64,000 bases of DNA from a virus, in IMG/VR virus record IMGVR_UViG_3300045243_000070, positions 8,982-72,981 of that record. The stretch is one strand, 5' to 3'. The notes beneath the pieces are model-generated. The model was given only the letters and a program-made list of their open reading frames with translations, was not told the origin of the DNA and did not search any database. Position numbers and translations under genes: made by a program. Positions 1 to 29,445 of the stretch are shown here, in pieces. Each line of letters opens with the position of its first letter. Within the stretch, counting starts at the first letter, position 1.

Positions 1-285
1 TTTCTTCCACGCCCTGTAGTGGTCAAGCATGTTCTCTGTGATGCTCTCAAGCGTGTTCTTGAACGTGAATTTTAATAGGTCTTCCGTGGTCTTGTCAAGC
101 TTAATCTTCTCAACACGCTCGGCCTTAGTTTGCATGCGCTTGGTCAATGTCATGATGTTCTGGACTAAGTAAAGACCAGCCGATGCCTCGGTAGTAAACC
201 CACCCATGATGCTCTTACCGTCATATTGAATTTCCCAACACGGCTCAGAAAATTTGATTGTAAAATGCTCGTCTATTTTTATCAT
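1..285 (-). CDS. hypothetical protein, runs off the left edge of the window
   Basis: ATG at 285 overlaps the stop of the upstream ORF (ATGA); AAGGGGGC RBS; open frame to position 1 (MIKIDEHFTIKFSEPCWEIQ...). Confidence 0.7.
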   Translation of the reverse strand, partial: MIKIDEHFTIKFSEPCWEIQYDGKSIMGGFTTEASAGLYLVQNIMTLTKRMQTKAERVEKIKLDKTTEDLLKFTFKNTLESITENMLDHYRAWKK

Positions 286-584
286 GATGCCCCCTTAATT
301 ATTCTCAATAGATGTCCACACATTAATTTATCGTGTTTAAAAGCTCTGACCAAAGGCCAATAAAAACCGGGGTATTGATTGCCCGATGCTTGATATATTA
401 CTTGACCAATACACCCACATGATTTCCATGTGCCACACTTTTTTTCGTTGTCGTATTCTCCCCCATAACAAAATTCTACAAAATCACCCTCTTTAATGGC
501 AGTCCCACTCACGTCAAAGATTCCTATTTCAATGCCTTTGAATTTTGAAATTATTTCATCGAGCGTCATTTTAATCGTCCCCAT
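282..584 (-). CDS. YopX-like phage protein
   Basis: DVSGTAIKEGDFV resembles the YopX DxNGxxIYEGDIV motif. Confidence 0.5.
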   Translation of the reverse strand: MGTIKMTLDEIISKFKGIEIGIFDVSGTAIKEGDFVEFCYGGEYDNEKKCGTWKSCGCIGQVIYQASGNQYPGFYWPLVRAFKHDKLMCGHLLRIIKGAS

Positions 585-698
585 GTGTGAAATTGTAAAA
601 CTTTATTTGAAGCATTTGGATGTGCTGGCGAATAATCACCCTTCCCAAAATCCAAAATATTTTAATCACCTGTTTTGTTTGTGCTACCGTCCAGAGTT

Positions 699-953
699 TC
701 ATACCTTCTTTCCCCGCTTGAATTTTTCGTTCAAGGCCGAACAAAGCCACCTGTATTCCCTGATGCATTCCTTCCGGCCCCGCTCACCAAAAATTTGCAT
801 GTTCATTCCAATAATGCTATCCCCATCTTTTGGTTTTATGCTCAGCCACACTTGCCCCGTTTTCCAAGGCTCATCACGTCTTTGCTTTTGGTCTTTACTC
901 GGTGTCCAGTCCTCAATAACTACACGGAAAGGCCCGTCAAATGGGCACTTCAT
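699..953 (-). CDS. hypothetical early protein
   Basis: ATGA overlap with the upstream ORF, same strand as the cassette. Confidence 0.6.
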   Translation of the reverse strand: MKCPFDGPFRVVIEDWTPSKDQKQRRDEPWKTGQVWLSIKPKDGDSIIGMNMQIFGERGRKECIREYRWLCSALNEKFKRGKKV

Positions 954-1246
954 GCTTTCACCTCGATGCTCGGACAGCCATAGGAATGCCCATGCTCAAT
1001 GGGGTCAAGCGCACACAAACATTTTGGTTCTTGCTCCTTGACCTCGATGCTCGGCTGTGGTGTTGGGATGAAATGCTTGAGGGTTTTGTTGATGCTCATA
1101 TCCTTCAATGTTACTTCCTTATTGCCGGGGTATGTGATGCCCTCAATGACGCTCGTGCTGTAGTGCTCAAAACAGCGCTCAGCAATGCCTCTGTCATTCA
1201 ATGGGAAGTCTCCCATGCCTTCGACTATGACGTTGAACCGTGCCAT
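950..1246 (-). CDS. hypothetical early protein (start re-assigned to MARFNV)
   Basis: AAGGGGG RBS before the ATG at 1246; own promoter at 1279-1307. Confidence 0.65.
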   Translation of the reverse strand: MARFNVIVEGMGDFPLNDRGIAERCFEHYSTSVIEGITYPGNKEVTLKDMSINKTLKHFIPTPQPSIEVKEQEPKCLCALDPIEHGHSYGCPSIEVKA

Positions 1247-1278
1247 GCTTCCCCCTTTCGATGCTCGATGCTTGAACC

Positions 1279-1307
1279 ATACTACCATGCCTTGACGGAA
1301 TTGTCAA
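1279..1307 (-). promoter_or_regulatory. sigma70-type early promoter with an inverted repeat over the -35
   Basis: TTGACA-17-TAGTAT with extended TG; CTTGAC-N6-GTCAAG palindrome at 1291-1308. Confidence 0.8.
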
Positions 1308-1627
1308 GCAAAAACTTTCTCGTCCGCTGAAATAACAATACCCATTCGGGTTAATCTAGTGCTCTCCTCCTCGTTGTAAAGCTTTTCCATCTCTAACCTC
1401 GTTAAAAATTCCATGCTCTTGACCTCAACATACCCCTCAACGAAACCATGCTCATTCATGAAGTCATAGAGATATTCTTTTTCGGTGTACCCAAGGCCCA
1501 ACTCTTTTTCTACTCGTTGGTAAATGCACCTATGGATTTCTTCCCCGAATTGTCGAGGGTAAACTACTCCGCTATTCAAGTCTTTCACTGCTGGAATGTA
1601 CCGCTTACCTTTCACTTTGATGCCCAT
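1304..1627 (-). CDS. hypothetical early protein, paralog of 4428..4805
   Basis: YIPAVKDLNSGVVY...H...EGYV...FLTR shared with the 4428 ORF. Confidence 0.75.
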   Translation of the reverse strand: MGIKVKGKRYIPAVKDLNSGVVYPRQFGEEIHRCIYQRVEKELGLGYTEKEYLYDFMNEHGFVEGYVEVKSMEFLTRLEMEKLYNEEESTRLTRMGIVISADEKVFA

Positions 1628-1686
1628 ATGATTCCCCCTTAGATTAAAAATCGTTCAAGCAATGCCCCAAAGAATGCAATTTCAGC

Positions 1687-1890
1687 CTATACTAGAAACC
1701 GCTCTTTCCAGTCCCCGTCAATGAATTCGTGCACAACCCGCTCTTGAACGTCTAAAATTTGTTTGTATTCATTGCTATAGGAAAACGCTTGTTTCTTTGC
1801 CAGCTCAAGGCTATCGCATTGGAACCTTAAATCATTCAAGCCCCCTTCAGGATAATAATCCCCGAAAACAAACACTAAAAATCTTGGCAT
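1687..1890 (-). CDS. small conserved phage protein (YYPxGG motif)
   Basis: GDYYPEGGLNDL motif common in small phage proteins; GAGGGGG RBS. Confidence 0.7.
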   Translation of the reverse strand: MPRFLVFVFGDYYPEGGLNDLRFQCDSLELAKKQAFSYSNEYKQILDVQERVVHEFIDGDWKERFLV

Positions 1891-1938
1891 ACCCTACCCC
1901 CTCAGCTTAAATTTAAAATCGTTCAAGCAAACACCCTC

Positions 1939-2142
1939 TTAATCAAATAATCGACCTATGGGCACTCTTATCACGGCTTGAGGCACAAAGGCTATAGGCT
2001 CGTCTATCCCTTCAAGCTTGACAGGCAAAGCCCCTCTTTCAAACATGCCGTACACTTCACGAGGGTTTAAAACTATTCCCTCCTTACCCTTAAACTCCCC
2101 TACCATAACCCGCACCTTGTGGCCTATGGTCAAAATTTCCAT
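1939..2142 (-). CDS. KOW-motif small protein
   Basis: IGHKVRVMVGEFKGKEGIV matches the KOW consensus GDxVxVxxGxFKGxxGxV. Confidence 0.7.
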   Translation of the reverse strand: MEILTIGHKVRVMVGEFKGKEGIVLNPREVYGMFERGALPVKLEGIDEPIAFVPQAVIRVPIGRLFD

Positions 2143-2233
2143 CCCTTGCCCCCTAGCTTCGATGATTTTACTACCCCGGCCCTGCTACCCTTGGGTAAAT
2201 AATCGGCCCAAGGATAGCCCTTTAAATGCAAAA

Positions 2234-2953
2234 CTAGGCCGTTTGGCGTACCACAAAACCGCTATCATCGTATCGTGCTTTTCCTTTAGCGTACAAGGCC
2301 ACAATTGCCCCCTGATACCCTTCGAGGAAACGCATATCTGTTTTGTCCCCGTCAATGACTGGACGGCCTAAAAACTCTTTGGGGTAGTCTTTACCACCAA
2401 AAACTACTGCAACATTAATCCCATTTTCAAGCGCAAGCTTTACCTCGTTTTCATTCTTTTCAGAACGGGAAAATGTCACATGGTAATTTTTAATATTGTT
2501 TTTGGCATTCAAGGCCTTTTTAATGTCTTTGGTATAATCGTAAAATTGCACGTTAGGAAATTGCTCAAAAACATTTTTCCCGTCATAAGGCTTGAAGTTT
2601 TCCCACCTTATGTCACTAGTGCCATTTAAGCGGACAAAAGCCCTTTTGCCTTCTTTGGTGGCCTTGCGCTCTAAAGCCTCAATTTCCTTTTTCATGGTTT
2701 CAAAAAAGAGGGGTTTATTCTCAAAAAAGAAATTGGTTTTTCTTAAACGGCCTTTAATCACTGGAGCCATAACACCCCGCCCCGCTGAAAATAGGCACGT
2801 CTTAACGCAACCATTGGAAGCAAAAGGGCAAACGTTACCGTGCCCTCCTGCCTTGTGAGGGGTCAAATAAAGAATTGACCCCGTCCAGTCTACTGTTTCA
2901 GACTTTTTTGTCTTATTATTCTTAACCGCTTGCGAAAGAACCGTGTTTGTCAT
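2234..2953 (-). CDS. GP88-family protein (Cys-cluster, radical-SAM-like)
   Basis: CPFASNGCVKTC, VRLNGTSDI, FYDYTK and NYHVTFSRSE motifs. Confidence 0.75.
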   Translation of the reverse strand: MTNTVLSQAVKNNKTKKSETVDWTGSILYLTPHKAGGHGNVCPFASNGCVKTCLFSAGRGVMAPVIKGRLRKTNFFFENKPLFFETMKKEIEALERKATKEGKRAFVRLNGTSDIRWENFKPYDGKNVFEQFPNVQFYDYTKDIKKALNAKNNIKNYHVTFSRSEKNENEVKLALENGINVAVVFGGKDYPKEFLGRPVIDGDKTDMRFLEGYQGAIVALYAKGKARYDDSGFVVRQTA

Positions 2954-2985
2954 ATCAAGCCCCCTTGATGTTTAACTACTCTTGA

Positions 2986-3014
2986 ATATTAACAGACAGT
3001 CAAGGAATAGTCAA
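2986..3014 (-). promoter_or_regulatory. sigma70-type early promoter
   Basis: TTGACT-17-TAATAT with extended TG. Confidence 0.75.
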
Positions 3015-3058
3015 TAGGAAAATAATTTATTTTACGTGATAAAATAAACCAACCTATT

Positions 3059-3087
3059 AGAATACCATACTTTCCCGGTTTTGTCAA
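3059..3087 (-). promoter_or_regulatory. sigma70-type early promoter (tandem with 2986-3014)
   Basis: TTGACA-17-TATTCT with extended TG. Confidence 0.75.
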
Positions 3088-3101
3088 GCGTTAAATAAAA
3101 T

Positions 3102-3135
3102 AAAAAAGCCGTACCTTGGGGGCAAGGCACGGCTT
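3102..3135 (-). terminator. intrinsic terminator
   Basis: AAGCCGTGCCTTG-loop-CAAGGTACGGCTTTTTT. Confidence 0.8.
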
Positions 3136-3163
3136 AACCTGCTGAAAAAGAGAAGTTAGAGAA

Positions 3164-3523
3164 TCAAATAAACGGTTTCCAGCCGTCCTCCTTAGCCAGT
3201 TTTCCAATTATGGCGTTATAGACTTGCGCCTTGCTGGAATAATACTCGTAATTTTCTTCCCCCGGCCTAAAATTCTCCCATTGGTTAATGGGGGCAAGCC
3301 TAAGAATTTCCTCTTTTAAGCCCCCGCCCTCGTAATAATCAATAAAGCCCTGAAGATTATAATGGGCAATAAAACCACTAGCGAGGGAAAGGAAATTGTA
3401 CCCTGTTTTATTAAGCTGGTTAATGTCCTTGCAAGCCTTAACCACGTTGTTAACAATCAAGGCCTGCTTTTGCTTACTTAACGGCTCAATGCCTTTTCTC
3501 TTCACTTCGTTTAAAGCTTCCAT
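3164..3523 (-). CDS. conserved hypothetical phage protein
   Basis: GFIAHYNLQGFIDYY motif; own promoter, RBS and terminator. Confidence 0.75.
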   Translation of the reverse strand: MEALNEVKRKGIEPLSKQKQALIVNNVVKACKDINQLNKTGYNFLSLASGFIAHYNLQGFIDYYEGGGLKEEILRLAPINQWENFRPGEENYEYYSSKAQVYNAIIGKLAKEDGWKPFI

Positions 3524-3560
3524 GCTCTGCCCCCTTGATGCTTATATGCTCAACGGATTA

Positions 3561-3589
3561 ATGCTACCATGCCTCTATGGTATTGTCAA
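3561..3589 (-). promoter_or_regulatory. sigma70-type early promoter
   Basis: TTGACA-17-TAGCAT with extended TG. Confidence 0.75.
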
Positions 3590-3625
3590 GTATAAAAATA
3601 TGGTGCTTGAATGAATTAACCCCTC

Positions 3626-3654
3626 AGTATACCAAAAAAGTTTTTACTTGTCAA
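3626..3654 (-). promoter_or_regulatory. sigma70-type early promoter (tandem)
   Basis: TTGACA-17-TATACT with extended TG. Confidence 0.8.
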
Positions 3655-3662
3655 GTAAAAAA

Positions 3663-3887
3663 TTAAGGTAGGGGAAAGAAACCAATTGCCTTTAAAAGCA
3701 ATTTAATATTATAAAGGGCTTGCTCTTGCGTGAAACCTATTTCACTGACACCTTGCCCCGGCACGTCAAGCAAAAAGGGCATATCATCATTGAAAGGCTG
3801 GTAAACAATTGACCCTTGATAGGCATTAAAGCCCAAAGACCCTTGAATATAATTTGTTAGTGAACCGTTGACATAATAGTTTTCCAT
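3663..3887 (-). CDS. hypothetical protein
   Basis: 74-aa ORF preceded by TAAATTTTAGC (late-type motif) at 3895-3905. Confidence 0.55.
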   Translation of the reverse strand: MENYYVNGSLTNYIQGSLGFNAYQGSIVYQPFNDDMPFLLDVPGQGVSEIGFTQEQALYNIKLLLKAIGFFPLP

Positions 3888-3949
3888 GCCTTAGGCTAAA
3901 ATTTAATTGTTTTGGCAGGGGTAGGATAGCGGACTGGTTAAAATGACAC

Positions 3950-3986
3950 AAAAAAAGCCCCTTAGAATGTAAATCCAAGGGGCTTT
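3950..3986 (-). terminator. intrinsic terminator
   Basis: AAAGCCCCTTGGA-loop-TCTAAGGGGCTTTTTTT. Confidence 0.8.
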
Positions 3987-4004
3987 AAACGGCCTTTAAT
4001 GCTT

Positions 4005-4295
4005 TTACTTCTTAGCCTTGACCGTTACCTTATTGAAAAGCGCAACATTAATATAAGGGTCAAGCTTTTCACCAAAAACGGGTTTCAATGTTTCCAGTGA
4101 AACCGTTTCCCGTCTTTGGGGTTGAACCATGACGAGGAATGACCCCGTATTGATTTCAGTTTTCCCCATGCTTTCAAAGAAGTCTTTCAATTCACCCTCT
4201 TCTTTTTCAAGCAAAGACTTTTGGTCTTTGATTAACTTAAGCCTTTTGGCCTTTTCGTTAATCGTCTCAATTTCTTTTCGTGCTTTTGTCGGCAT
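4005..4295 (-). CDS. hypothetical coiled-coil protein
   Basis: AAGGGGGC RBS, promoter at 4398-4426, downstream terminator. Confidence 0.75.
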   Translation of the reverse strand: MPTKARKEIETINEKAKRLKLIKDQKSLLEKEEGELKDFFESMGKTEINTGSFLVMVQPQRRETVSLETLKPVFGEKLDPYINVALFNKVTVKAKK

Positions 4296-4397
4296 AATGC
4301 CCCCTTTAAAATTTTAGCGGAAAAAGAGTCTTTAAGGTTATTTTGCCTTAACACTAACTAGCGCTTTTACCCTCTTGCGCTTTCCCCGCTTTAAAAT

Positions 4398-4426
4398 ATA
4401 CTACCAAAAAATCCCTTCCCTGTCAA
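4398..4426 (-). promoter_or_regulatory. sigma70-type early promoter
   Basis: TTGACA-17-TAGTAT with extended TG. Confidence 0.8.
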
Positions 4427-4427
4427 G

Positions 4428-4805
4428 TTAAAAATTATCTGGACATAACCCCTTTCTTTGTAAAGTAAATGTTTCGCCTAAATGATAACCCCCATGATAT
4501 TCGACCCCTTTTTGTTTTAAATGCTTGTCAAGCGCTTTCCTTGTGAAATAGTCCCCGGTATTTAGAGAAACAAAACCCTCAATTAGTTTGCATTCTTCAC
4601 TGTCATAATCCCTTTCATTGTAAGGGATTTTAAAGATATCCGCAACCCTGATAAAAACATCATGGTGCGTTCTGTCTTCAGGCAAAGCCATGTAAACTTT
4701 ACCGCTTTCCTTATGCTTGACGGCTGGAATATACCCCTCTTTAATTCTTTGCTTGACTAAAATAGCCTCTAAGCTTTCAAACCTTCTTAATTTTAATATT
4801 GTCAT
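4428..4805 (-). CDS. hypothetical early protein, paralog of 1304..1627
   Basis: YIPAVKHKESGKVY...HH...EGFV...YFTR. Confidence 0.75.
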   Translation of the reverse strand: MTILKLRRFESLEAILVKQRIKEGYIPAVKHKESGKVYMALPEDRTHHDVFIRVADIFKIPYNERDYDSEECKLIEGFVSLNTGDYFTRKALDKHLKQKGVEYHGGYHLGETFTLQRKGLCPDNF

Positions 4806-4815
4806 TTAATGCCCC

Positions 4816-5046
4816 TTATCTTACATCAAAAACAATGGCTTTACTTACTGGGTTTTGGTATGGCTTGCCATTGTAAGCGTATTCAACCGGGTTTCCGTGC
4901 TTGTCCGTTTCCATAATTTCGGGTTTTTCTGCGTTTCTGTTTTGGCTTCCCCCCTCATCAGCGTCATGCCACATGATAAGCACTTCCATATCATCAGAAA
5001 CCCCGTCAAGGTTATTAATCATTTTTTTAAAATCGCCTAGTTTCAT
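4816..5046 (-). CDS. small hypothetical phage protein
   Basis: MKLGDFKKMINNL..DDMEVLI start; AAGGGGGC RBS. Confidence 0.7.
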   Translation of the reverse strand: MKLGDFKKMINNLDGVSDDMEVLIMWHDADEGGSQNRNAEKPEIMETDKHGNPVEYAYNGKPYQNPVSKAIVFDVR

Positions 5047-5109
5047 CTTATGCCCCCTTGAATTAAAAATCGTTCAACTAACAGCCCTTTAAATGTAATT
5101 TCGACCCTT

Positions 5110-6342
5110 TTAAGCTTTGACCCCCTCAACGAATTGCGCCCTTGTGATAACCGTTTCCTTGACCCCTTTAAATTCATTATGAGCCTTAACAGTAGCCTTG
5201 ACAATTAAGCCGTCAACGTCCTGCGCTCCTTCGTTAAATCCAAAACCAAAAGACGTTGAAAACCATGAAAGAGAATTGCCCTTTTCATCTTTAAATTTTA
5301 ATAATGCGCTCTTGCCATAATCGCCTTCGATGAAACGGACATATACGAGTTTAGCCTTGACATTTACAAGCTTGTCCTTAATGCCCCCTAAAAATTCGCT
5401 AGTGATGGAAGGCTTTTCAATCTTAACAAAATCAGGGGTTAAATTATTAGCTTTCATGTAAGCCCAAACACTGGAAACGACAAGCCCCATATAACGGCTT
5501 TCAACGGCTTGACCCTTTAACAGTGTTTTAATGTTTTGCTCATATTCCCCGGTAGGGTTAATGCTTGCGCCCCATGAAATGACGTTTAAAGCGGTTTCCC
5601 TGTCTTGCCCGTTTGGTGTGATAACCTTGTCCTCTATTTTCCGGTAGTCTTCACCCTTTAGGCCCCGGTAATTCACTTGCTCCCAAACTAGGCCCCCCGT
5701 TGAGGGTAGGCCGTTCTCATCGCTTTTCGCCTTGCTCCTGTAAAATCCGCTCTTGCGAATAACAGCGCTAGAAAGGGACAGTATGTCAAGCAATGAGGGC
5801 AAACAATGCGCCCCATGACTGGAAGAATCCCCGCCCCCTATGTTTCCCCCTGCGGTTTCTAAAAATTCGGCAATTTGAGCAAGAAATTCGGGGTTATGGT
5901 TAAAGCCCATAAAATCTTTTAAACAGCTTGAACCTACTTGGATGATAGCCCCTATTTCATCCTTTAATAAAAACGTGCTATTTCTAACCCGGTTAATTTT
6001 GCAATGGTCACATAAGCAAAGCCTAGTCAACCAATCGGCAGGGACAGGGTTGTCCATGTCAAAACGCCTTATGATGTTTCCCCCTTCCCTATGGTCAAGG
6101 CTTGCGACAAAGGAATAACCATTAATAAAAGGGGCTTTCCCGTCAATGGAACCACAAACAACGTTTAAAACCTTTTCAATGCTTGACCCGTCCGGCAATT
6201 GCTCAAAGAAGGTTAGAACGTCCCGCCCCGTTTCAATCAAGGTAATTTCTGGACAACCTATTTTAACCGCTTTCCTGTTAAGCTTTTCGACTTGCTTTTT
6301 AAAATCATCCCATTTATAAACAGGGATTTTAAAGTCTTTCAT
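5110..6342 (-). CDS. conserved phage protein with Zn-binding motif and a C-terminal OB-fold-like region
   Basis: CDHCKINRVR...QVGSSCLKDF; C-terminal beta-rich KATVKAHNEFKGVKETVITR; own promoter. Confidence 0.7.
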   Translation of the reverse strand: MKDFKIPVYKWDDFKKQVEKLNRKAVKIGCPEITLIETGRDVLTFFEQLPDGSSIEKVLNVVCGSIDGKAPFINGYSFVASLDHREGGNIIRRFDMDNPVPADWLTRLCLCDHCKINRVRNSTFLLKDEIGAIIQVGSSCLKDFMGFNHNPEFLAQIAEFLETAGGNIGGGDSSSHGAHCLPSLLDILSLSSAVIRKSGFYRSKAKSDENGLPSTGGLVWEQVNYRGLKGEDYRKIEDKVITPNGQDRETALNVISWGASINPTGEYEQNIKTLLKGQAVESRYMGLVVSSVWAYMKANNLTPDFVKIEKPSITSEFLGGIKDKLVNVKAKLVYVRFIEGDYGKSALLKFKDEKGNSLSWFSTSFGFGFNEGAQDVDGLIVKATVKAHNEFKGVKETVITRAQFVEGVKA

Positions 6343-6376
6343 GTCTTGCCCCCTAGCTGGTTTTCACTACTCTTTT

Positions 6377-6405
6377 ATAATAGCAAAAAAGGGGGATAGT
6401 GTCAA
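6377..6405 (-). promoter_or_regulatory. sigma70-type early promoter
   Basis: TTGACA-17-TATTAT with extended TG. Confidence 0.8.
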
Positions 6406-6449
6406 TGCTTGCCCCTAGTATTTAACGGCTTAATGCTTTTAGGTAGTTT

Positions 6450-6483
6450 ATAACCATTTTGTAGGAATCTACATTATTGTAGA
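6450..6483. repeat. paired 16-bp palindrome, copy 1
   Basis: TCTACA-TTAT-TGTAGA at 6468-6483 preceded at an 18-bp period by degenerate ATAACC-ATTT-TGTAGG. Confidence 0.75.
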
Positions 6484-6744
6484 ATGCCTTCCATAACGAA
6501 AAAAATTTCCCCTAGTGTAATTTTGACCCTTAAAAACAGTCTAGATAAGCGCCCCCTAAAAACCCGCCAAACTTTGGGAGCATAGAAAACCGTTTGGCCT
6601 ATTTTTACATTCTATAGGCCTTTAATTGAAAGATTTTTTATCATAGGGCAATCTTATAAAAAACTTTTTATCTTTTAGTTAAGGCCCTGTTATGTGTAAG
6701 AAATAACAACCCCGGCCCTCTCAAAATTTTTTATAAAAACTTTC

Positions 6745-6773
6745 ATCATATCATAAAAAATCTTTTTTGTCAA
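6745..6773 (-). promoter_or_regulatory. sigma70-type promoter firing into non-coding DNA
   Basis: TTGACA-17-TATGAT with extended TG; no ORF of 60 aa or more in the next ~340 bp. Confidence 0.7.
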
Positions 6774-7082
6774 GTAAAATAAATTTCACGACAAAAAAAC
6801 TTTGCATTTAAACTCGATTTGAGCCCATGATTTTTTATAAAAAGGTTTTTTGTTAGCCTGCAATAAAAGGCCCTTTTACACTGCCCCGTTTTTGCATTCT
6901 TTGGGGCTTTTTCTGCACGGTTTTTTCTTTCGCATAAGGGCAATATGCGCCCACCCCCTGCCGTGGTACGCTCTGAGGGGCAGGGTAGGGACAAGTAAAA
7001 GAGGTTAAAAGAGTCTAAAAAGCGAATCTAGGGGGATAAATAGGGGCTTGTGGGACAGTAAAGGCATGAAAAAAGGGGAAAT

Positions 7083-7118
7083 AAAAAAGCCCCTACCTTT
7101 GGGGAAAGGAGGGGCTTT
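7083..7118 (-). terminator. intrinsic terminator
   Basis: AAAGCCCCTCCTTT-loop-AAAGGTAGGGGCTTTTTT. Confidence 0.8.
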
Positions 7119-7141
7119 AACTACTTGAAAGGGGTTTTTGT

Positions 7142-7597
7142 TTAAGCGTTAACCTCTTCCACGTTCAAAGCTTCTTTCAAGGCCTTGACCCCTTCTTGAA
7201 AATACTTAATCATATCGAGCCGATTGTTTTGAGCGCTTGAACCGTTGCGCCCCTTTGCCATTTCATCGAAAAGAGTTTTGATTCTCGTTTCCATGTATTC
7301 AATGGCTCCCAAAGAGTTTTGAAGGCCTTGGGGGGCTTCTACGTCAAAATCAATTGTTATTTCCAAGGCTTCAAGCAAGCGCCTAACTTTGCTTTGATGT
7401 CTTTGGGTTGACGTTGAATAGCGGTAAGAATTGAAAAACACTTTCCCGCCTATAACCTTGACGAATTCCCACCAATTGTAGGAAAGAGCGGTTTTTGTTT
7501 CAGGGTTAAATGTTACGTTAACCCCTTTGTAAATCCCCGCCCTTTTCATAAACTTCAAAGCGGTTTTTTCCTTCACTACTTCAAGAATTTGATTCAT
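7142..7597 (-). CDS. hypothetical early protein (start re-assigned to MNQILE)
   Basis: AAGGGGGC RBS before the ATG at 7597; YSxSTxRHQS motif. Confidence 0.7.
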   Translation of the reverse strand: MNQILEVVKEKTALKFMKRAGIYKGVNVTFNPETKTALSYNWWEFVKVIGGKVFFNSYRYSTSTQRHQSKVRRLLEALEITIDFDVEAPQGLQNSLGAIEYMETRIKTLFDEMAKGRNGSSAQNNRLDMIKYFQEGVKALKEALNVEEVNA

Positions 7598-7737
7598 TTT
7601 CTGCCCCCTTAAATTTATTTTCTTCCACCAAAAAAACCCTCTCAAAAAACTCTACGTCTATATCTGATATCATGCCCCCTTCTTTAGCGCTTGTCAAGCG
7701 TTCTTCATTTAATTTTTTTAGTCTTTCCCGTACCATG

Positions 7738-7977
7738 TTAAACCCCCTTAGCTTGTTTTAATAGTTTACGATGTCCACCCTCAATTTTCAAGCGCTTTAA
7801 TACTTCCCCATAGGGATGAGCCCCGCAAGTAGTCCAATCAATTTCAGCATTGCAAGCCCACAAAATTTCAGGCTCAATAAGGATAACGGAAATTACCCCT
7901 TCATTTTTTACGATAATTAGCCCCTGCCCGTCACTATCTTTCCAGAATGAGATTGTTATACCTTCTTTGGCTTGCAT
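7738..7977 (-). CDS. hypothetical early protein
   Basis: GAGGGGGC RBS. Confidence 0.65.
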   Translation of the reverse strand: MQAKEGITISFWKDSDGQGLIIVKNEGVISVILIEPEILWACNAEIDWTTCGAHPYGEVLKRLKIEGGHRKLLKQAKGV

Positions 7978-7991
7978 GTCTTGCCCCCTCG

Positions 7992-8021
7992 AAAAAATGC
8001 CCCCTAGCGTTAACTAGGGGG
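7992..8021 (-). terminator. intrinsic terminator
   Basis: CCCCCTAG-loop-CTAGGGGGCATTTTTT. Confidence 0.7.
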
Positions 8022-8035
8022 ATTAAACCGTGCCT

Positions 8036-8290
8036 TTAGTAGTCCTCTAAGCTGTCTAGCTTGTCATCCTGAAGGCTTTCAATATAGCTTTCCCTCTCGT
8101 TTTCAATGTCTTCAGACAATAAAACCTCATCCATCTCTTCTGATAACCGCTCGTTTTCTTTTTCCTCCTGCAAGCATTCGGCGCAAAGAATCGAACCGTC
8201 AAGGGCTAACTTTCCTTCACCCTCTTTCAATTCGATAAAACAATCTCCGCATTCTAACAGCGGGTTTTTCTCTTTAACTTGGTTTGACAT
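8036..8290 (-). CDS. small highly acidic Zn-finger protein
   Basis: CGDC...CAEC followed by an E/D-rich tail; own promoter and terminator. Confidence 0.75.
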   Translation of the reverse strand: MSNQVKEKNPLLECGDCFIELKEGEGKLALDGSILCAECLQEEKENERLSEEMDEVLLSEDIENERESYIESLQDDKLDSLEDY

Positions 8291-8323
8291 ATCACACCCC
8301 CAAAAGTTTTTAACTACACTGAT

Positions 8324-8351
8324 ATATTATCAATTAGAAAAAGATTGTCAA
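8324..8351 (-). promoter_or_regulatory. sigma70-type early promoter
   Basis: TTGACA-16-TAATAT with extended TG. Confidence 0.7.
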
Positions 8352-8515
8352 GCGTTTAAAAACATTTATTTAATTTATTTTAGAGGTAGGCTGGAAGGGG
8401 TAGCCTTTGAGCATTTACACGTTTTAAAAGGGGTCAATTTTGCATTCTTTGGGGGTTTATTTCGCCCCTGTAGACTCCACACATAGGGCCAATAAAGGCC
8501 TCGTAAAGAGGATTA

Positions 8516-8550
8516 AAAAAAAGGCCCATTCTGTGTAAGAATGAGCCTTT
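8516..8550 (-). terminator. intrinsic terminator after ardC
   Basis: AAAGGCTCATTCT-loop-AGAATGGGCCTTTTTTT. Confidence 0.8.
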
Positions 8551-8565
8551 TAAATCGACTAGGTT

Positions 8566-9435
8566 TTAAACTGGTACGGCTCCCCCTTCTGGAACAGGGG
8601 TTTTTATTTCCCCTGCCGATTGTAACAGCATGTTAACCGCTTTTTGGGCTTGTGAGCAAGCCTTGTAAAGCGTGTCCTCCTTTTCCTTCATCCCTTTGCA
8701 CCATGACGTTATATAGGCCGTGTGTTGCGTGTCATAGTGAAAGCCCACATAAGCGGACAGGAAAGCCCCTCCCATTTCCGCAACTAATTCTTCAAAAGGC
8801 CTTTCCGCTTTATAATCAGTAAAGCTAGGACGGTTTAAACGCTCTTTCGCCCCTGTCCAGTGAATCAATTCATGAAAAACTGTTGAATAATAACCTTCAT
8901 CAGTTTTCCACAACGATTTTTTTGGCACTTCAATGTGAGAGGCATCATTTTTACAAAAAGCAGGGGTTTGTGTAGTTGCGCCATTTTCGATGATCTTAGC
9001 CCCTGATAAGAGGATAATTTTATCCCCTAACACGTTTGGTTTTAATTCCCTTTTGACAATTTCATGGGGTTTCAAACCGTCTACTTGGTCAAGGGAGAAA
9101 ACTACCGAAGTTTTCATGAGGGGAAATTTTTCCTTTTTCCCGTCTTTCATTCTTTCCAACATTTGGAAATAAGAAACACAAAAACCCTTAGCCCCCTTTT
9201 TAACCTGCCCCCCTGCCTCGGTTGCTTGTTTGTAGGTTACGAATTGCCCTGTAGTTAATCCGCTACCCTGCAAACCATAAGCAAGGCCTATCACGTTCAT
9301 TCCCTGATAAGGCCTTTTGCTTTTCCAATTCATAACCTGCTGGTAAAACCAAGGCATTTCCCAAGGCAAAGACCCTTTTTCCATGTCTTTTAAAACCTTG
9401 TCCGCTAATTCCTGCATTTTCGGTGTTAATCTCAT
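8566..9435 (-). CDS. ardC: ArdC-family anti-restriction ssDNA-binding protein with zincin (MPTase) domain
   Basis: LPWEMPW, RPYQGMN, TYKQA..AGGQVKKG (ArdC N-domain); YYSTVFHELIHWTG and FEELVAE zincin motifs. Confidence 0.9.
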   Translation of the reverse strand: MRLTPKMQELADKVLKDMEKGSLPWEMPWFYQQVMNWKSKRPYQGMNVIGLAYGLQGSGLTTGQFVTYKQATEAGGQVKKGAKGFCVSYFQMLERMKDGKKEKFPLMKTSVVFSLDQVDGLKPHEIVKRELKPNVLGDKIILLSGAKIIENGATTQTPAFCKNDASHIEVPKKSLWKTDEGYYSTVFHELIHWTGAKERLNRPSFTDYKAERPFEELVAEMGGAFLSAYVGFHYDTQHTAYITSWCKGMKEKEDTLYKACSQAQKAVNMLLQSAGEIKTPVPEGGAVPV

Positions 9436-9447
9436 AACCTGCCCCCT

Positions 9448-9516
9448 TTAAAATTTTTCAAAAGCTAACAGCCCAACACCAAACAACAAAACCACTATAA
9501 CAAAAACAATTTCCAC
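9448..9516 (-). CDS. 22-aa hydrophobic micropeptide
   Basis: GTG start after AAGGGGGC RBS; MEIVFVIVVLLFGVGLLAFEKF. Confidence 0.5.
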   Translation of the reverse strand: MEIVFVIVVLLFGVGLLAFEKF

Positions 9517-9517
9517 G

Positions 9518-9691
9518 TCAAGCCCCCTTTTCTAATTGTTTAATAATACCGTTTTCAACGGCTTTCACTACCCTTTCACCTATGACACGTCTTTCGGCTT
9601 GAAAGGCTCGTAAAACCTCAATAGGTAAAGGGCTCTTTTCATTCTTGACCCTTTTGACTCTCATTTTTAACAGCTCTTGAAATACGCTCAT
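9518..9691 (-). CDS. 57-aa basic hypothetical protein
   Basis: AAGGGGGC RBS directly below the promoter at 9726-9753. Confidence 0.6.
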   Translation of the reverse strand: MSVFQELLKMRVKRVKNEKSPLPIEVLRAFQAERRVIGERVVKAVENGIIKQLEKGA

Positions 9692-9725
9692 AAAGCCCCC
9701 TTCAAAACTTATTCCCTACACTTCA

Positions 9726-9753
9726 ATTTTATCAAGCCCTAAAAGATTGTCAA
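9726..9753 (-). promoter_or_regulatory. sigma70-type early promoter
   Basis: TTGACA-16-TAAAAT with extended TG. Confidence 0.7.
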
Positions 9754-9995
9754 CAAAAAAATTAAATTATTTTAGGGCTTTAAATATAGGCCTTTTAAAA
9801 TATAAGGGTTTTTAGCCTATTTCCCCCATTCTTGCATTTAAAGGCCTATTCCTTGAACGATTATTTATTTAAGCCCCTATCGTATTAAGGCTTAGAGTTT
9901 TAAACATACTATTTTTCAATTTCAGACTAAAAACTTTTGATTAAATTTTTTAGCTTGACAATTTCAAAAAACTCTGAAGGGCTTTTTACCTCTAT

Positions 9996-10029
9996 CCTAC
10001 AATTTTGTCTGATTCTACAAAACTGTAGA
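9996..10029. repeat. paired 16-bp palindrome, copy 2
   Basis: CCTACA-ATTT-TGTCTG + AT + TCTACA-AAAC-TGTAGA. Confidence 0.75.
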
Positions 10030-10314
10030 CTATTCGGCGGATGACCTGCTTTTGCATTCTTTGGGCCTTTCCTTTGATCGAACACCTTTCCCTTATCATC
10101 TATCGTTAGTCCTCATTGTCACTTAAATTAGCCCCTATTATATGCAAACATTTTAGGTGCCTTAAAACGCCATATATTGCAAAAAATAAAACAAAATAAT
10201 TCGCTCAATTATCTTTTGTATGCCATTGACAGGCCCTAATTTTGATTCTAAGGCCCTTTACTTGAACGATTATTTTTATAGGCTATTAAAACAAGCAAGC
10301 CCAAACCCCTATAA

Positions 10315-10354
10315 AAACAAAAAGCCCCATACTACCCGAGGGGTAGCAGGGGCT
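10315..10354 (-). terminator. intrinsic terminator
   Basis: AGCCCCTGCTACCC-loop-GGGTAGTATGGGGCTTTTT. Confidence 0.7.
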
Positions 10355-10382
10355 AGGCCTATACTAGGGGTAGTGTAGGGTT

Positions 10383-10583
10383 TTAGGAGTATTTAACGTT
10401 AATCATCATATTATGGAAACCCAGCAAAGCCCTTTTAAAATTGTCATAAAGATAGGACTGCTCAATTTCCCCCTTCCGGTTGACTACTTCAACCCAATAT
10501 CCCCTAGTCCTGTCAGGGTTGAGAATTTTAGTATAGGTAATAGCCTTATTCCTGATAACCGCCTCCCTATAGGCTAGGACCAT
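10383..10583 (-). CDS. hypothetical early protein
   Basis: 66-aa ORF between promoter and terminator. Confidence 0.65.
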   Translation of the reverse strand: MVLAYREAVIRNKAITYTKILNPDRTRGYWVEVVNRKGEIEQSYLYDNFKRALLGFHNMMINVKYS

Positions 10584-10584
10584 A

Positions 10585-10659
10585 TCACACCACCATCAAG
10601 AGAACGATATACAACCCGGCCACTACAAACCCCGCCTTGACTCCTAGTGATACCCTCAT
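10585..10659 (-). CDS. 24-aa hydrophobic micropeptide
   Basis: AAGGGGG RBS; MRVSLGVKAGFVVAGLYIVLLMVV; first ORF after the promoter at 10698-10725. Confidence 0.55.
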   Translation of the reverse strand: MRVSLGVKAGFVVAGLYIVLLMVV

Positions 10660-10697
10660 GTGCATCCCCCTTGGTGTGTCTTACTGCCTACATAGAG

Positions 10698-10790
10698 ATA
10701 ATAACATAAGGGTTTTTATTGTCAACAATAAAAATAAAATAAATTAATAAATATTTATATAGTTGACAATTCTAGGGGATATGGTAGTAT
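10698..10790. promoter_or_regulatory. divergent sigma70 promoter pair around an AT-rich spacer
   Basis: minus strand TTGACA-16-TATTAT (10698-10725); plus strand TTGACA-16-TAGTAT (10763-10790). Confidence 0.75.
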
Positions 10791-10834
10791 ATGGGCAGGG
10801 GGAAACTATGCGATTATAAAGGGAATATTAAACA

Positions 10835-10868
10835 TCTACAATTTTGTAGAACTATACCAAAATGTTTG
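10835..10868. repeat. paired 16-bp palindrome, copy 3
   Basis: TCTACA-ATTT-TGTAGA + AC + degenerate TATACC-AAAA-TGTTTG. Confidence 0.7.
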
Positions 10869-11033
10869 GGTCCCATCGGTCCTAGACAAGGTGGAGCACG
10901 AAGCCTTCGAGGAGGTGCGGAATCTTATGGATGTTATAAGAATGATGAAGAGAAGGAAAGCACAGAAAAAGGAGTCCCTTTTGGGTCCTACTTCTGGGGC
11001 TCCCTTAAAATTTTAAAAATGCATCATATTTTC

Positions 11034-11089: not shown

Positions 11090-11554
11090 ATGAGAGAGAT
11101 AAAGCTGACCCAGGGAGAAGTGGCCCTGATTGATGATATTGATTTTGAATTAGTCAGTGGATATAAGTGGCACTGTTATAAAGGGGCCTACACAAAATAT
11201 GCAATTTCTGGGTGTAGAAAAAATAAAGTTTATATGCACAGGTTAGTGGCAGGCGCTACTGACCCTAAAACAGACGTTGACCATAAAAATTCGGACGGCT
11301 TGTGCAATTTAAGGTCTAATCTAAGAATAATTACTCATCAACAAAATACATTTAATAAAAGGCTGTCTAAGTCAAATACTTCGGGATTTAAGGGGGTGTG
11401 TTTTGATAAGGAGAAAGGAAAGTGGAAATCTAAAATTAAATTGAATGGAGTAGACATTCATATTGGTTATTTTAAAGATAAAGAGGATGCTGCAAAAGCC
11501 TACGATTTAAAAGCGAAAGAATTGTTCGGGGAGTTTGCAAGAACTAATTTTTAA
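11090..11554 (+). CDS. HNH-AP2 homing endonuclease
   Basis: YMHRLV...VDHKNSDGLCNLRSNLR; NTSGFKGV...IGYF...AAKAYD (AP2). Confidence 0.9.
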   Translation: MREIKLTQGEVALIDDIDFELVSGYKWHCYKGAYTKYAISGCRKNKVYMHRLVAGATDPKTDVDHKNSDGLCNLRSNLRIITHQQNTFNKRLSKSNTSGFKGVCFDKEKGKWKSKIKLNGVDIHIGYFKDKEDAAKAYDLKAKELFGEFARTNF

Positions 11555-11690: not shown

Positions 11691-12182
11691 TTGAAATATA
11701 TTATTACTTCCAACGGGGATCGGGTCCTTGTCAGCGACCGGGACTACCCCAAGGTTGTCAATCTCTGCTGGTCCACACTCAAGTCCAAGAACCATGGCCT
11801 TAAATACGCTAGGCGTACATTCCCCGGTGGACGCCACGTCTTCATGCACCGGTTTATACTCAACGTCGGTCCTGGGGTAACCATTGATCATAGAAACCGA
11901 AATGGTATTGATAATCGTCGCTCCAATCTGCGTCGGTGTAGCCACTCTCAAAACCTCTTTAATTCAAAATTAAGAACCAATAATAAATCCGGGTTCAAGG
12001 GGGTCTCCTGGAACAAATTCCATAAAGCCTGGATGGTTAAAATCCGCTTTGAAAATAACCACATACATCTAGGCTATTTTCACAATAAAATCAAGGGTGC
12101 CATTGAATATGACCGTAATGCCAAAAGGCTTTTCGGTAAATTCGCACGGCTTAACTTTCCTCGGCGCAAGACCCCTCAATAA
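11691..12182 (+). CDS. HNH-AP2 homing endonuclease
   Basis: MHRFIL...IDHRNRNGIDNRRSNLR; NKSGFKGV...HLGYF. Confidence 0.9.
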   Translation: MKYIITSNGDRVLVSDRDYPKVVNLCWSTLKSKNHGLKYARRTFPGGRHVFMHRFILNVGPGVTIDHRNRNGIDNRRSNLRRCSHSQNLFNSKLRTNNKSGFKGVSWNKFHKAWMVKIRFENNHIHLGYFHNKIKGAIEYDRNAKRLFGKFARLNFPRRKTPQ

Positions 12183-25758: not shown

Positions 25759-26868
25759 TTATTCCTTGTAGTGCTCCAAGAACTTGTTGGATACAACCTT
25801 GAAGGACACACGGCCCTTCATGTAGTCGCTGTATTTCTCCACGAGCGGACGGAACACAATCCCCTCTCTTGGAGTTCCGTTGGCATAGGAGCCATCAGCC
25901 ATAGCCAGCATTTCATCAAACTTGCGTCCAGTGAAGTCGAAATTGGAGTCAATAATCTCGACAGTCTGTAACCCCAATTCTTTGGTGAAGGAAATGAACT
26001 CATCAAAGTTAAGATGTCTGCGTTCAGAGATGTTGAACACATTGAACACAAAGAAGTCAACCTCCTTCAAGCCCATCTTGTTGCCTTGGATGCCAGGACC
26101 GCAGATTTCACCTTGGACGGCGTAATTTCCTTTGGCCTTAAGCTTATCAAGGATGTTGTATTTCTGTTCCATTTGGAAGTACACGTTTGGCTTATCCCCC
26201 TCAATTGGAGCCTTGAGAGACAGTTTGCGTGAGCAGACGTGTTGTTCACCATCCGTCAGTCCATCCGGCAAGAAGTTGATGTAGGTTGCTGAGGTTCCAT
26301 CCATCTTGACGGAAGCGTAACCCTTGACCCCATTAAGCTCTTCCAGAATTCGTGAGCAGTTTTGAAGACGTTCTTCGTCCGTAACTGACACGTATTTGGT
26401 GGGGAAGTTACCCTTAATCTTTCCATGTAGGTTGGCGGGAATAGGTTTCTCATACTTGGTAACACCAATGAGGGTGGTGATGTCATCACCGACCAGCATT
26501 CCTGCGAACCCAACGGTTCCAGTCGATAAACCTTCAATCCCAGGTTCTTTTTTTAAATCTGTCAGCTGGATGATAAGCCCCTGAGAGAGTTGTTTCTTCA
26601 GGCGAATGGTGCGGACACGGAAGTGACTCTTCCGTAAAAATTCGGACCACGGGGCTTCTGGAACTACAGTATCAATGGCAATAAAACATACTAGGTCTCC
26701 AACCTTATGCAATTCTTTCTGAACAACCACCTGCCATTCATTGTCTTCCATTTTAGCCAGTTCTATCTTATCAGCATCGGGTATTGGGCTAAGGGATTTA
26801 ATTTTTTGAATAGTGGCTAAATTTTTAACCACCTCTACTGTTTCTACAGTCTCTGAAACTTCACTCAT
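25759..26868 (-). CDS. RNA ligase, DRB0094/Rnl2-like family
   Basis: LATIQKI..PIPDADKIE N-domain; motif I KMDGTS; QGEICGPGIQGN; REGIVFR; FKVVSNKFL. Confidence 0.9.
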   Translation of the reverse strand: MSEVSETVETVEVVKNLATIQKIKSLSPIPDADKIELAKMEDNEWQVVVQKELHKVGDLVCFIAIDTVVPEAPWSEFLRKSHFRVRTIRLKKQLSQGLIIQLTDLKKEPGIEGLSTGTVGFAGMLVGDDITTLIGVTKYEKPIPANLHGKIKGNFPTKYVSVTDEERLQNCSRILEELNGVKGYASVKMDGTSATYINFLPDGLTDGEQHVCSRKLSLKAPIEGDKPNVYFQMEQKYNILDKLKAKGNYAVQGEICGPGIQGNKMGLKEVDFFVFNVFNISERRHLNFDEFISFTKELGLQTVEIIDSNFDFTGRKFDEMLAMADGSYANGTPREGIVFRPLVEKYSDYMKGRVSFKVVSNKFLEHYKE

Positions 26869-27245
26869 TGTAAATACTCCTTTGCTTTTTGTAATAATTC
26901 AACGCTATCTCTAAATAAACCTAATCCAGAATTACACCGATGGCATAAAATTCCACGAATATTCCCAGTCTTGTGGTCGTGGTCTATACAAGCTCTACCT
27001 TCAGTACCTTTTCCACGAACCTCTCTTTTTAATGGGTAGCCACATATCCCGCATCTCCCACGAAAAGCTTGATATAAGGCCTCAAAATATTCCTCATCTA
27101 TTCCATACTTTTTTAAATAACCCCATTGTTTTTTATACTCACTTAAAGTTCCAGTTCGTATCATCCTACTTAAACAATGACATTTTCGACACCTTTTCCC
27201 CCATGTCATCGTGGAGCAACCAAGGCATTTTTTCTTCTTACTCAA
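26865..27245 (-). CDS. endonuclease VII-like HNH endonuclease
   Basis: KKYGI...CGIC...IDHDHKTGNIRGILCHRCNSGLGLFRD. Confidence 0.9.
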   Translation of the reverse strand: MSKKKKCLGCSTMTWGKRCRKCHCLSRMIRTGTLSEYKKQWGYLKKYGIDEEYFEALYQAFRGRCGICGYPLKREVRGKGTEGRACIDHDHKTGNIRGILCHRCNSGLGLFRDSVELLQKAKEYLQ

Positions 27246-28120: not shown

Positions 28121-28137
28121 TTCTTCCTACCGATTTA

Positions 28138-28251
28138 TTATAGACAACAAATAGCTAAAAATATCAACCAACCCCAGCCTTCCTTACCATACCACGCCAG
28201 AAAAATAGCTCCGGCAGTCGCCAATAGTGCAATCCACCAAGACCCTTTCAT
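28138..28251 (-). CDS. 37-aa two-helix membrane micropeptide
   Basis: GGAGG RBS; MKGSWWIALLATAGAIFLAWYGKEGWGWLIFLAICCL. Confidence 0.55.
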   Translation of the reverse strand: MKGSWWIALLATAGAIFLAWYGKEGWGWLIFLAICCL

Positions 28252-28260
28252 GAGTCCTCC

Positions 28261-29430: not shown

Positions 29431-29445
29431 AAGATAGCTACGGTG

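Follow-up and report, generated by a model that had tools for sequence, protein, structure and literature searches.

Dispersed repeats in the early region of an SPO1-like soil phage match a Xer-linked, possibly dif-like element of FCPU426 bacteria

The IMG/VR virus record IMGVR_UViG_3300045243_000070 is a contig of 72,981 bp, of which bases 8982-72981, a stretch of 64,000 nucleotides, form the window analysed here; coordinates are window positions unless they are marked as contig positions. Its early region carries a dispersed, bipartite repeat in which the copies are sorted by orientation. We present evidence that, judged by its sequence, this motif is the same element as one found in a clade of the candidate division FCPU426, where it lies beside, and often on both sides of, the gene of a tyrosine recombinase at the presumed replication terminus. 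Our leading reading, held tentatively and with slightly less than even confidence, is that the repeats are copies, carried by the phage, of a dif-like, Xer-linked site of the probable host lineage and that they act as a terminus-like polar stop.

An earlier note on this DNA had described the repeats as a polarised dispersed family, and the family is statistically robust. The first half of the motif has 18 matches against 4.6 +/- 2.35 expected and the second half has 9 against 1.92 +/- 1.59, and neither count was reached in any of 100 shuffles. An independent de novo repeat search recovers the same family (D1, D3, D4 and D19; pairs I1-I7). Furthermore, a 42-column position weight matrix (PWM) built from 10 copies was scanned over the whole contig, with the chance level set by 60 Markov-simulated genomes. 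Ten strong copies score 30.3-49.7 bits, above the simulated maximum of 17.0; their leave-one-out scores span 8.1-43.5 and exceed 17 for nine of the ten. Four weak or half copies reach 22.6, 18.4, 17.2 and 8.7 bits. All 14 sites lie between 4.4 and 19.3 kb of the contig, a fifth of its length, and nothing elsewhere on it scores above 11 bits. The copies are diverged (60-85% alike) and their middle parts vary.

Two bacterial metagenome contigs (L220 and L221) match a stricter composite pattern; the same pattern, searched in one genome per species, also matches metagenome-assembled genomes titled 'candidate division FCPU426' together with two untitled ones. The sequence-only model R1, made from 23 copies, matches 32 of 99 FCPU426 genomes with 1-6 matches each, and all 32 stand in one run of the list, which corresponds to one clade. 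A second model, R2, was made from 56 host copies and holds no phage sequence at all. With filters switched off and the entire phage contig as target, it finds eight copies at expectation values (E) of 6.5e-8 to 0.02, all on the expected strand, and gives partial matches to three further phage copies; anything outside the known copies has E >= 0.12. Because a host-only model recovers the phage copies, we take the phage motif and the host motif to be the same element at the level of sequence. The shared motif suggests that the phage host probably belongs to the FCPU426 clade.

Matches in other viruses are scarce. The composite exact pattern gives 55 matches in viral contigs, mostly in repeated coding sequence, and only the IMG/VR contig pair L110/L118 looked real; there, two copies in direct orientation, 1.8 kb apart, bracket a 1.7-kb segment. 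This pair has no tblastx homology to our phage and is unrelated to it. Its ribosome-binding sites are of the AAGGGG type, and it may represent another phage that infects this host clade. An exact 15-mer was rejected as a tracer in viral contigs, where it produced 77 single, chance-like matches.

In the host chromosomes the locus is syntenic. A hydrolase gene is followed by the motif in minus orientation, a tyrosine recombinase gene, the motif in plus orientation and, about 300 nucleotides further, an aminotransferase gene. The outward-facing (-,+) pair, with its members 1.3-2.3 kb apart, brackets the recombinase gene in 16 of 32 genomes. The best host copy lies downstream of, and is co-oriented with, the xer-like ortholog in 24 of 30 genomes, at a distance of 145-190 nucleotides in 23 of the 30 and of 499 nucleotides in one. 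As for the rest of the 30, one best match is the upstream inverted partner and five loci have no xer-like gene within 1.5 kb. In two genomes the downstream neighbour is not the aminotransferase gene, and in both the site still follows xer. Across five genomes, 16 of 22 R1 matches fall within ~1.6 kb of a tyrosine recombinase domain (PF00589), a domain that has 4 to 36 matches per genome in these five; in genome G003 the terminus gene is one of four. The terminus recombinases are 340-382 aa long and their orthologs are 57-78% identical. Their best NCBIfam models are XerC and XerD, with scores below the cut-offs, and the catalytic R, K, HxxR, H and Y are retained when the proteins are aligned to E. 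coli XerD (1a0p).

Convergent gene orientation marks the replication terminus in bacterial chromosomes. Stretches of 65-400 kb were fetched around the motif pair in five genomes (G058, G056, G053, G055 and G061), and in all five the pair is the exact point where the long open reading frames (ORFs) change from nearly all plus-strand to nearly all minus-strand, more weakly in G061. In addition, the cumulative GC skew peaks near the pair in G058. Owing to this convergence and to the skew peak, the host xer/motif locus is taken as lying at the replication terminus.

The alignment of 54 distinct host copies shows a conserved left arm of 14 nucleotides, 4-5 positions of low information and a conserved right arm made of a T-run plus TTGAAcGATT. 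Dyad symmetry reaches 5.7 of 9, while other axes average 2.5 (sd 0.9). In six species, the stretch from the xer stop to the motif contains another conserved block of ~20 nucleotides (for instance L226:3165-3260); it could belong to the recombination site.

These properties recall the single-recombinase Xer systems. According to the available text of PMC5357621, XerS (356 aa) and XerH (354-362 aa) act alone, and a dif site beside the recombinase gene is a possible hallmark of such systems. The host recombinase resembles that of XerS/difSL (streptococci, lactococci) and of XerH/difH (Helicobacter, Campylobacter) in its length of ~340-380 aa and its intact catalytic residues; the host site likewise is conserved and asymmetric, adjoins the recombinase gene, lies at the replication terminus and has A/T-rich arms around a variable middle. 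The arms of difSL are given as TTTCCGAAAA and, on the right, TTTTCTTGAAA (PMC5357621, available text), and this right arm resembles the T-run plus TTGAA of the motif. Differences are also apparent. The host usually has two inverted copies flanking the gene and a few extra ones, and its conserved stretch is ~45 bp long as opposed to the 28-31 bp of XerS/XerH dif, in a lineage that belongs to an uncultured phylum. Since the host element matches XerS/XerH systems in size, in its xer linkage, in its place at the terminus and in the appearance of its right arm, we infer that it is a dif-like site of a single-recombinase Xer module. The link of the motif to a Xer-type recombinase gene at the terminus points to a dif-like protein-binding site. 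Most likely, the phage copies would be bound by the host recombinase or by a related protein that the phage encodes outside the sequenced part of its genome.

The arrangement of the copies in the phage window shares the polarity of the host pair. In the window, five minus copies are followed by seven plus copies. The minus copies occupy short intergenic gaps within an operon. The strong copy at 1642..1683 (-) scores 49.7 bits with both halves exact (family D1), lies between the genes at 1687-1890 and 1304-1627 and ends ~8 nucleotides ahead of a ribosome-binding site. It is followed by a strong copy with a variant first half at 1910..1951 (-; 38.7 bits; R2 E = 0.017), between the genes at 1939-2142 and 1687-1890, and by a strong copy whose middle is one nucleotide shorter at 2194..2235 (-; 30.7 bits; R2 E = 0.0026), directly past the stop of the GP88-like gene (2234-2953). 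The weak copy at 3935..3976 (-; 22.6 bits) consists of the first half only and overlaps the terminator hairpin at 3954-3986. The innermost minus copy, at 5061..5102, is again strong (47.7 bits; R2 E = 2.2e-7) and separates the gene of a 410-aa protein from the gene at 4816-5046.

The plus copies are found either in the non-coding gap of ~700 bp at 9692-10382 or in the spaces that separate the terminator of a minus-strand unit from the promoter of the following one. The innermost, at 6601..6642 (+), is strong (46.1 bits; R2 E = 0.013). A weak copy with a good first half stands at 6798..6839 (+), 25 bp upstream of the -35 box of the minus-strand promoter 6773; its PWM score of 8.7 bits is in the chance range, and R2 matches its first half at E = 0.02. 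The strong copy at 6888..6929 (+; 42.3 bits) lies between the terminator 7088-7125 and promoter 6773, and the half copy at 8436..8477 (+; 18.4 bits; first half only; family D3) between the terminator 8519-8551 and promoter 8351. The gap at 9692-10382 holds three copies, all on the plus strand: a strong one at 9828..9869 (49.4 bits; R2 E = 4.7e-6), one with a degenerate second half at 10048..10089 (30.3 bits, leave-one-out only 8.1) and the strong outermost one at 10237..10278 (43.1 bits; R2 E = 0.0004). To the left of the window, the PWM finds a strong plus copy at contig 4451-4492, beyond the minus block, and a weak minus copy at contig 7073-7114. Overall, the copies stand at gene and operon borders, either between genes or from terminator to promoter.

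This inventory revises the earlier list in part. Eight of the copies named there are strong and two, at 6798 and 8436, are weak or half copies, while the shorter variants placed at ~3985-4005, ~6420-6440 and ~6505-6535 score at most 6 bits and are dropped; the half copy at 3935-3976 (-) adjoins the first of these. The window does show a switch from minus to plus orientation. However, it falls in the interval 5102-6601 and not at ~6.55-6.8 kb, as the strong copy at 6601-6642 had been overlooked. This interval contains the gene of the 410-aa protein and its promoter. The earlier statements that all genes here are on the minus strand and that the flip is not set by transcription appear to hold: the long ORFs in window 1-10.6 kb are all minus-strand, and 7 of the 12 window copies are oriented opposite to every gene. 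The sorting by orientation is moderately significant, with p = 0.006 to 0.09 depending on the set of sites. The 12 window sites together give 0.006, and the nine strong ones among them, with one switch, give 0.035; on the contig, the value is 0.011 for the full set of 14 sites, with two switches, and 0.09 for the 10 strong ones. Both phage blocks face outward, with the same polarity as the host pair.

The earlier proposal of strand-specific cis sites arranged divergently about a centre gains support from the same outward arrangement around one gene in the likely host chromosomes, and is weakened by the extra plus copy to the left of the minus block. Copies in both orientations on one side of the flip had been named as a finding that would count against it; such a mixture occurs in part, through that copy at contig 4451-4492, outside the window. 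None of the suggested roles in helicase or primase loading, Chi-like attenuation or DNA entry is borne out, and GC skew has no inflection at the centre. A replication origin at the centre of the array was likewise rejected, as the skew follows gene direction. The stopping of a translocase or of a replication fork is one possible consequence of dif-like sites.

If the leading reading holds, primary events would take place as follows. The host Xer-type recombinase, or a related protein of the phage, would bind to the copies, but recombination between copies would be rare on account of their differing middle parts. The bound sites would then act in an orientation-dependent manner, as a terminus-like zone in the early region, and the array could serve as a polar stop or unloading zone for machines that travel on DNA, be they replication forks, SMC complexes or a translocase of the FtsK type. 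After the polar stop, the uses that we consider most probable are an exchange of gene modules and the titration of the recombinase of the host. A more elaborate version, which we consider unlikely, is that the phage mimics the host terminus: a two-sided, Xer-bound, dif-like array would stop or unload forks, FtsK and SMC-type complexes, including SMC-like defence systems, and would thereby protect or compartmentalise the early region or divert the only dimer-resolving recombinase of the host.

Several known systems offer partial parallels. The CTX, VGJ and TLC phages (IMEX) are small integrating filamentous phages with dif-like attP sites and use the XerCD proteins of their host (PMC5357621, available text). 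Our phage is comparable in carrying sequences that mimic a putative Xer site of the host (eight copies with R2 at E <= 0.02). The IMEX phages, however, have one or two sites for integration, whereas here 10-14 copies in two opposed blocks are found on the contig of a large SPO1-like myovirus. A second parallel concerns binding in which recombination is not involved. As described in the available parts of PMC11840125 and PMC12322038, XerD bound at the dif-like XDS sites unloads SMC complexes at the terminus of B. subtilis, and an artificial XDS array blocks SMC travel. The extra dif-like copies of the host may be comparable to such XDS sites, which are scattered in the terminus region and bound by a Xer protein without recombination.

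A number of observations weigh against the leading reading. On the phage side, the whole contig does not show a single flip, since the plus copy at contig 4451 breaks the simple two-block layout. Four phage copies have another inner left arm, with CTTTGG in place of TTAAAG, and R2 catches them only partly. No recombinase gene was found in the contig, which is 42% complete by CheckV. The host assignment is based on a single motif, and a homolog of the capsid protein was found in none of the 99 FCPU426 genomes, hence no lysogeny was seen. On the host side, the dyad axis is ambiguous, with several competing axes scoring 5.7-5.8 of 9. Furthermore, dif is normally single. The host genomes, however, usually have two copies and 1-4 additional ones, of which some stand at a distance from all recombinase genes. 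One class of extras is AT-rich, intergenic and distant from recombinase genes, and has an additional conserved block ~35 nucleotides downstream. Four extras located 20-90 kb away (in G053, G055, G058 and G059) share the polarity of the nearer pair member, but the overall picture is mixed: five extras fit, including one in G073, and three do not (G073 332627+, G061 72189- and the weak, unclassed G055 60667-). A second class comprises half motifs ~420-500 nucleotides upstream of, and co-oriented with, the gene of a 367-371-aa integrase. These half copies lie inside a 3-kb element between divergent genes, where a promoter or operator fits as well, and not at the ends of the element.

This multi-copy FCPU426 element of ~3 kb (L323:3022-6013; L324-L327) is 80-90% alike within and between genomes and contains the integrase gene and a divergent gene for a 181-aa protein. 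Its integrase is 25% identical to the terminus recombinase.

The main alternative is a special class of promoters, read by the sigma factor of the phage (23790-24677) or by an alternative sigma factor of the host. According to this explanation, the minus copies would re-express selected early genes and the plus copies would give antisense or small RNAs that shut early operons. We regard it as unlikely, although several features agree with it. In every host class as well as in the phage, the best-conserved blocks resemble a -35 (TTGCAT) and a -10 box (GATTAT, GATAAT, GAATAT). A ribosome-binding site follows 8-14 nucleotides after the end of three minus copies, and the phage does encode an RpoD/RpoS-like sigma factor. 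In the host, the half copies stand upstream of integrase genes in the same orientation and between divergent genes, and the right-hand copy of the pair is co-oriented with the aminotransferase gene. The spacing argues otherwise: the hexamer-like blocks are 21 bp apart as opposed to 16-18 bp in the sigma-70 model, conservation continues through the 'spacer', and the promoter scan calls other sites and not the copies. We know of no class of the sigma-70 family with a 21-bp spacing. Compared by eye with the consensus rules for sigma-54, sigma-28, sigma-32, extracytoplasmic function (ECF), sporulation-sigma and MerR-type promoters, for SPO1 middle and late promoters and for several Bacillus regulator boxes, the spacing does not fit either. 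The majority of the window copies face against all genes, and downstream of the plus copies we found no ORF with a start signal, no convincing small ORFs and no unusual fold beyond the known terminators. In the host genomes that were read, the left-hand copies are directed at the 3' end of a convergent gene, the best copy of G056 likewise faces a convergent gene, and the site tracks xer and not the downstream gene. The phage copies are thus probably not promoters.

Polarity and terminus position are equally the properties of fork traps, and the repeats could be Ter-like polar fork barriers bound by a terminator protein unrelated to Xer, with a phage trap centred at 5.1-6.6 kb and the host pair as the innermost sites of a chromosomal trap. 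The available text of a review (PMC10331603) states that fork traps arose at least twice, that a ter site lies in the tus promoter and in the rtp promoter, that two opposed groups of polar sites enclose dif between the innermost ter sites, that plasmids R6K and R1 carry ter sites and that the ter of B. subtilis is bipartite. Several features resemble Tus-ter and RTP-ter: the phage sites form two opposed blocks (p = 0.006-0.035), the outward-facing host pair stands exactly at the terminus, the motif is bipartite as well, and the four distant extras mentioned above keep the polarity of the nearer pair member. Nonetheless we find this explanation quite improbable. Neither Tus (PF05472) nor RTP (PF02334) has a match in the five host genomes, while control genomes matched, and no candidate terminator gene was identified. 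The tight linkage to a tyrosine recombinase gene is unexpected for a fork trap, the three ill-fitting extras break its polarity, and the phage GC skew is unchanged at the centre. Of similarly low probability, in our judgement, is the use of the copies as recombination sites that bound exchangeable modules and allow early, host-takeover or anti-defence genes to be swapped. The copies do border single genes (1642, 1910, 2194 and 5061) or terminator-to-promoter units (6888, 8436 and 9828), accessory genes such as an ArdC-like anti-restriction gene are present in the region, and the unrelated L110/L118 has two copies around its 1.7-kb segment. There is also a precedent in the pdif sites of Acinetobacter plasmids, which bound 'dif modules' and place many Xer-type sites on one replicon at gene-module borders (PMC12907356, PMC13141974 and PMC10132070, available parts). 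The phage copies differ in being sorted into two blocks, and no sign of module movement was found. Whereas pdif sites alternate in orientation, neighbouring phage copies do not. No module was found in a second context, since no relatives of the early genes turned up in viral contigs. The contig lacks a recombinase gene, and the sequences from two soil DNA runs are identical with no alternative joints, a comparison in which contigs hide rare variants. Lastly, the repeats might be small selfish or neutral elements that have no function for the phage, or operators at the level of messenger RNA; this we hold to be very improbable. Short, intergenic, diverged copies would suit such an element. On the other side, no terminal inverted repeats or target duplications were found at the copies, the orientation is sorted, and the positions that are conserved are the same ones as in the host copies, which come from dozens of species. 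As for RNA operators, the plus copies are antisense to all mRNAs, there is no conserved fold, no tRNA was detected in the phage region, and no Rfam family matches at gathering level, either there or at the host loci.

The contig has a G+C content of 42.4%, and the window stretch is present in two DNA runs from soil metagenomes, with no RNA run listed for it. Its major capsid protein shares 45% identity with those of Bacillus phage SP-10 and other SPO1-like phages. From the start of the contig to ~46 kb, nearly all long ORFs are on the minus strand. The RpoD/RpoS-like sigma factor of the phage (23790-24677, -) is of the sigma-70 family, has regions 1.2 and 2 and is most like the RpoD, RpoS and RpoH models. 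Two RNA ligase genes lie together with the genes of a polynucleotide kinase and a nicotinamide phosphoribosyltransferase at 25759-32096 (-); this cluster looks like a kit for RNA repair and NAD salvage, possibly with a counter-defence role. A comparison of the phage proteins with ~1 Mb of host loci matched only host sigma factor genes, at ~30% identity. In one relative, G102, the capsid protein is 82% identical and the motif is absent; its 46-kb contig probably lacks the early region and is therefore uninformative.

Small genes on the minus strand, among them the ArdC-like and GP88-like genes, make up window 1-10.6 kb, a region of early type. It is rich in strong TTGACA-N16-18-TAnnnT promoters, often with a TG extension, and has several intrinsic terminators; the early-region scan counts 52 promoter-like sites against 24.7 +/- 5.0 in shuffles. 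Near-consensus minus-strand promoters in window 1-11000 are located, for example, at 1307, 3087, 3589, 3654, 4426, 6405, 6773, 8351, 9753 and 10725, each upstream of a unit of small genes, in a layout resembling SPO1-type host-takeover regions. The central gene between the opposed blocks (5110..6342, -) encodes the 410-aa protein, which belongs to phrog_2319 with function unassigned. It matches no Pfam family, the protein atlas gave unnamed viral clusters only, and its single-sequence structure model is unusable (pLDDT 31.8). No close relatives of this protein or of the ArdC-like protein were found in viral contigs, a 12-kb megablast against phage records gave no match, and the relatives of the GP88-like protein are at most 50% identical.

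Other features of the region deserve mention. Near-palindromes of the form CTACAA-N4-TTGTAG constitute a second repeat family (D12, pair I8) at 6451-6480, 9997-10029 and 10835-10865. They are located in non-coding control regions beside divergent promoters and look like operators of a dimeric regulator. Two HNH endonuclease genes at 11090-11554 (+) and 11691-12182 (+) run opposite to their neighbours from their own promoters; one has an AP2 domain, and both probably encode homing endonucleases. Ribosome-binding sites at many phage gene starts are mostly AGGGGG and not AGGAGG. This was rejected as a clue to the host, because the 16S tail of the likely hosts is canonical. In one soil run, a 203-base contig (1428-1630, depth 3.5) joins contigs of depth 8.2 and 10.3; this low-depth spot adjoins the copy at 1642-1683 and may mark a variant, or may equally be noise.

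These results bear on the phage and on its probable host alike. Through the motif, a soil phage for which the phage records searched hold no close relative gains a sequence-based host assignment, to the FCPU426 clade. It also defines a candidate single-recombinase Xer/dif module, together with the position of the terminus, in a phylum whose chromosome biology is unstudied. A narrow literature search found no array of dif-like sites on a large tailed phage, and the available text of the fork-trap review (PMC10331603) does not contain the word 'phage'. The presence of some dozen orientation-sorted copies of a host terminus site in the region with which a large SPO1-like phage takes over its host would represent a new phage behaviour. 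If the polar stop is true, a terminus-type cis system would be described for the first time on a virulent-type tailed phage, and a Xer-based polar barrier would for the first time be indicated in an uncultured phylum. Should the sites indeed bind the host recombinase, the array would allow one to ask whether it stops forks and translocases, unloads SMC complexes, permits swaps of modules or starves the host of its recombinase.

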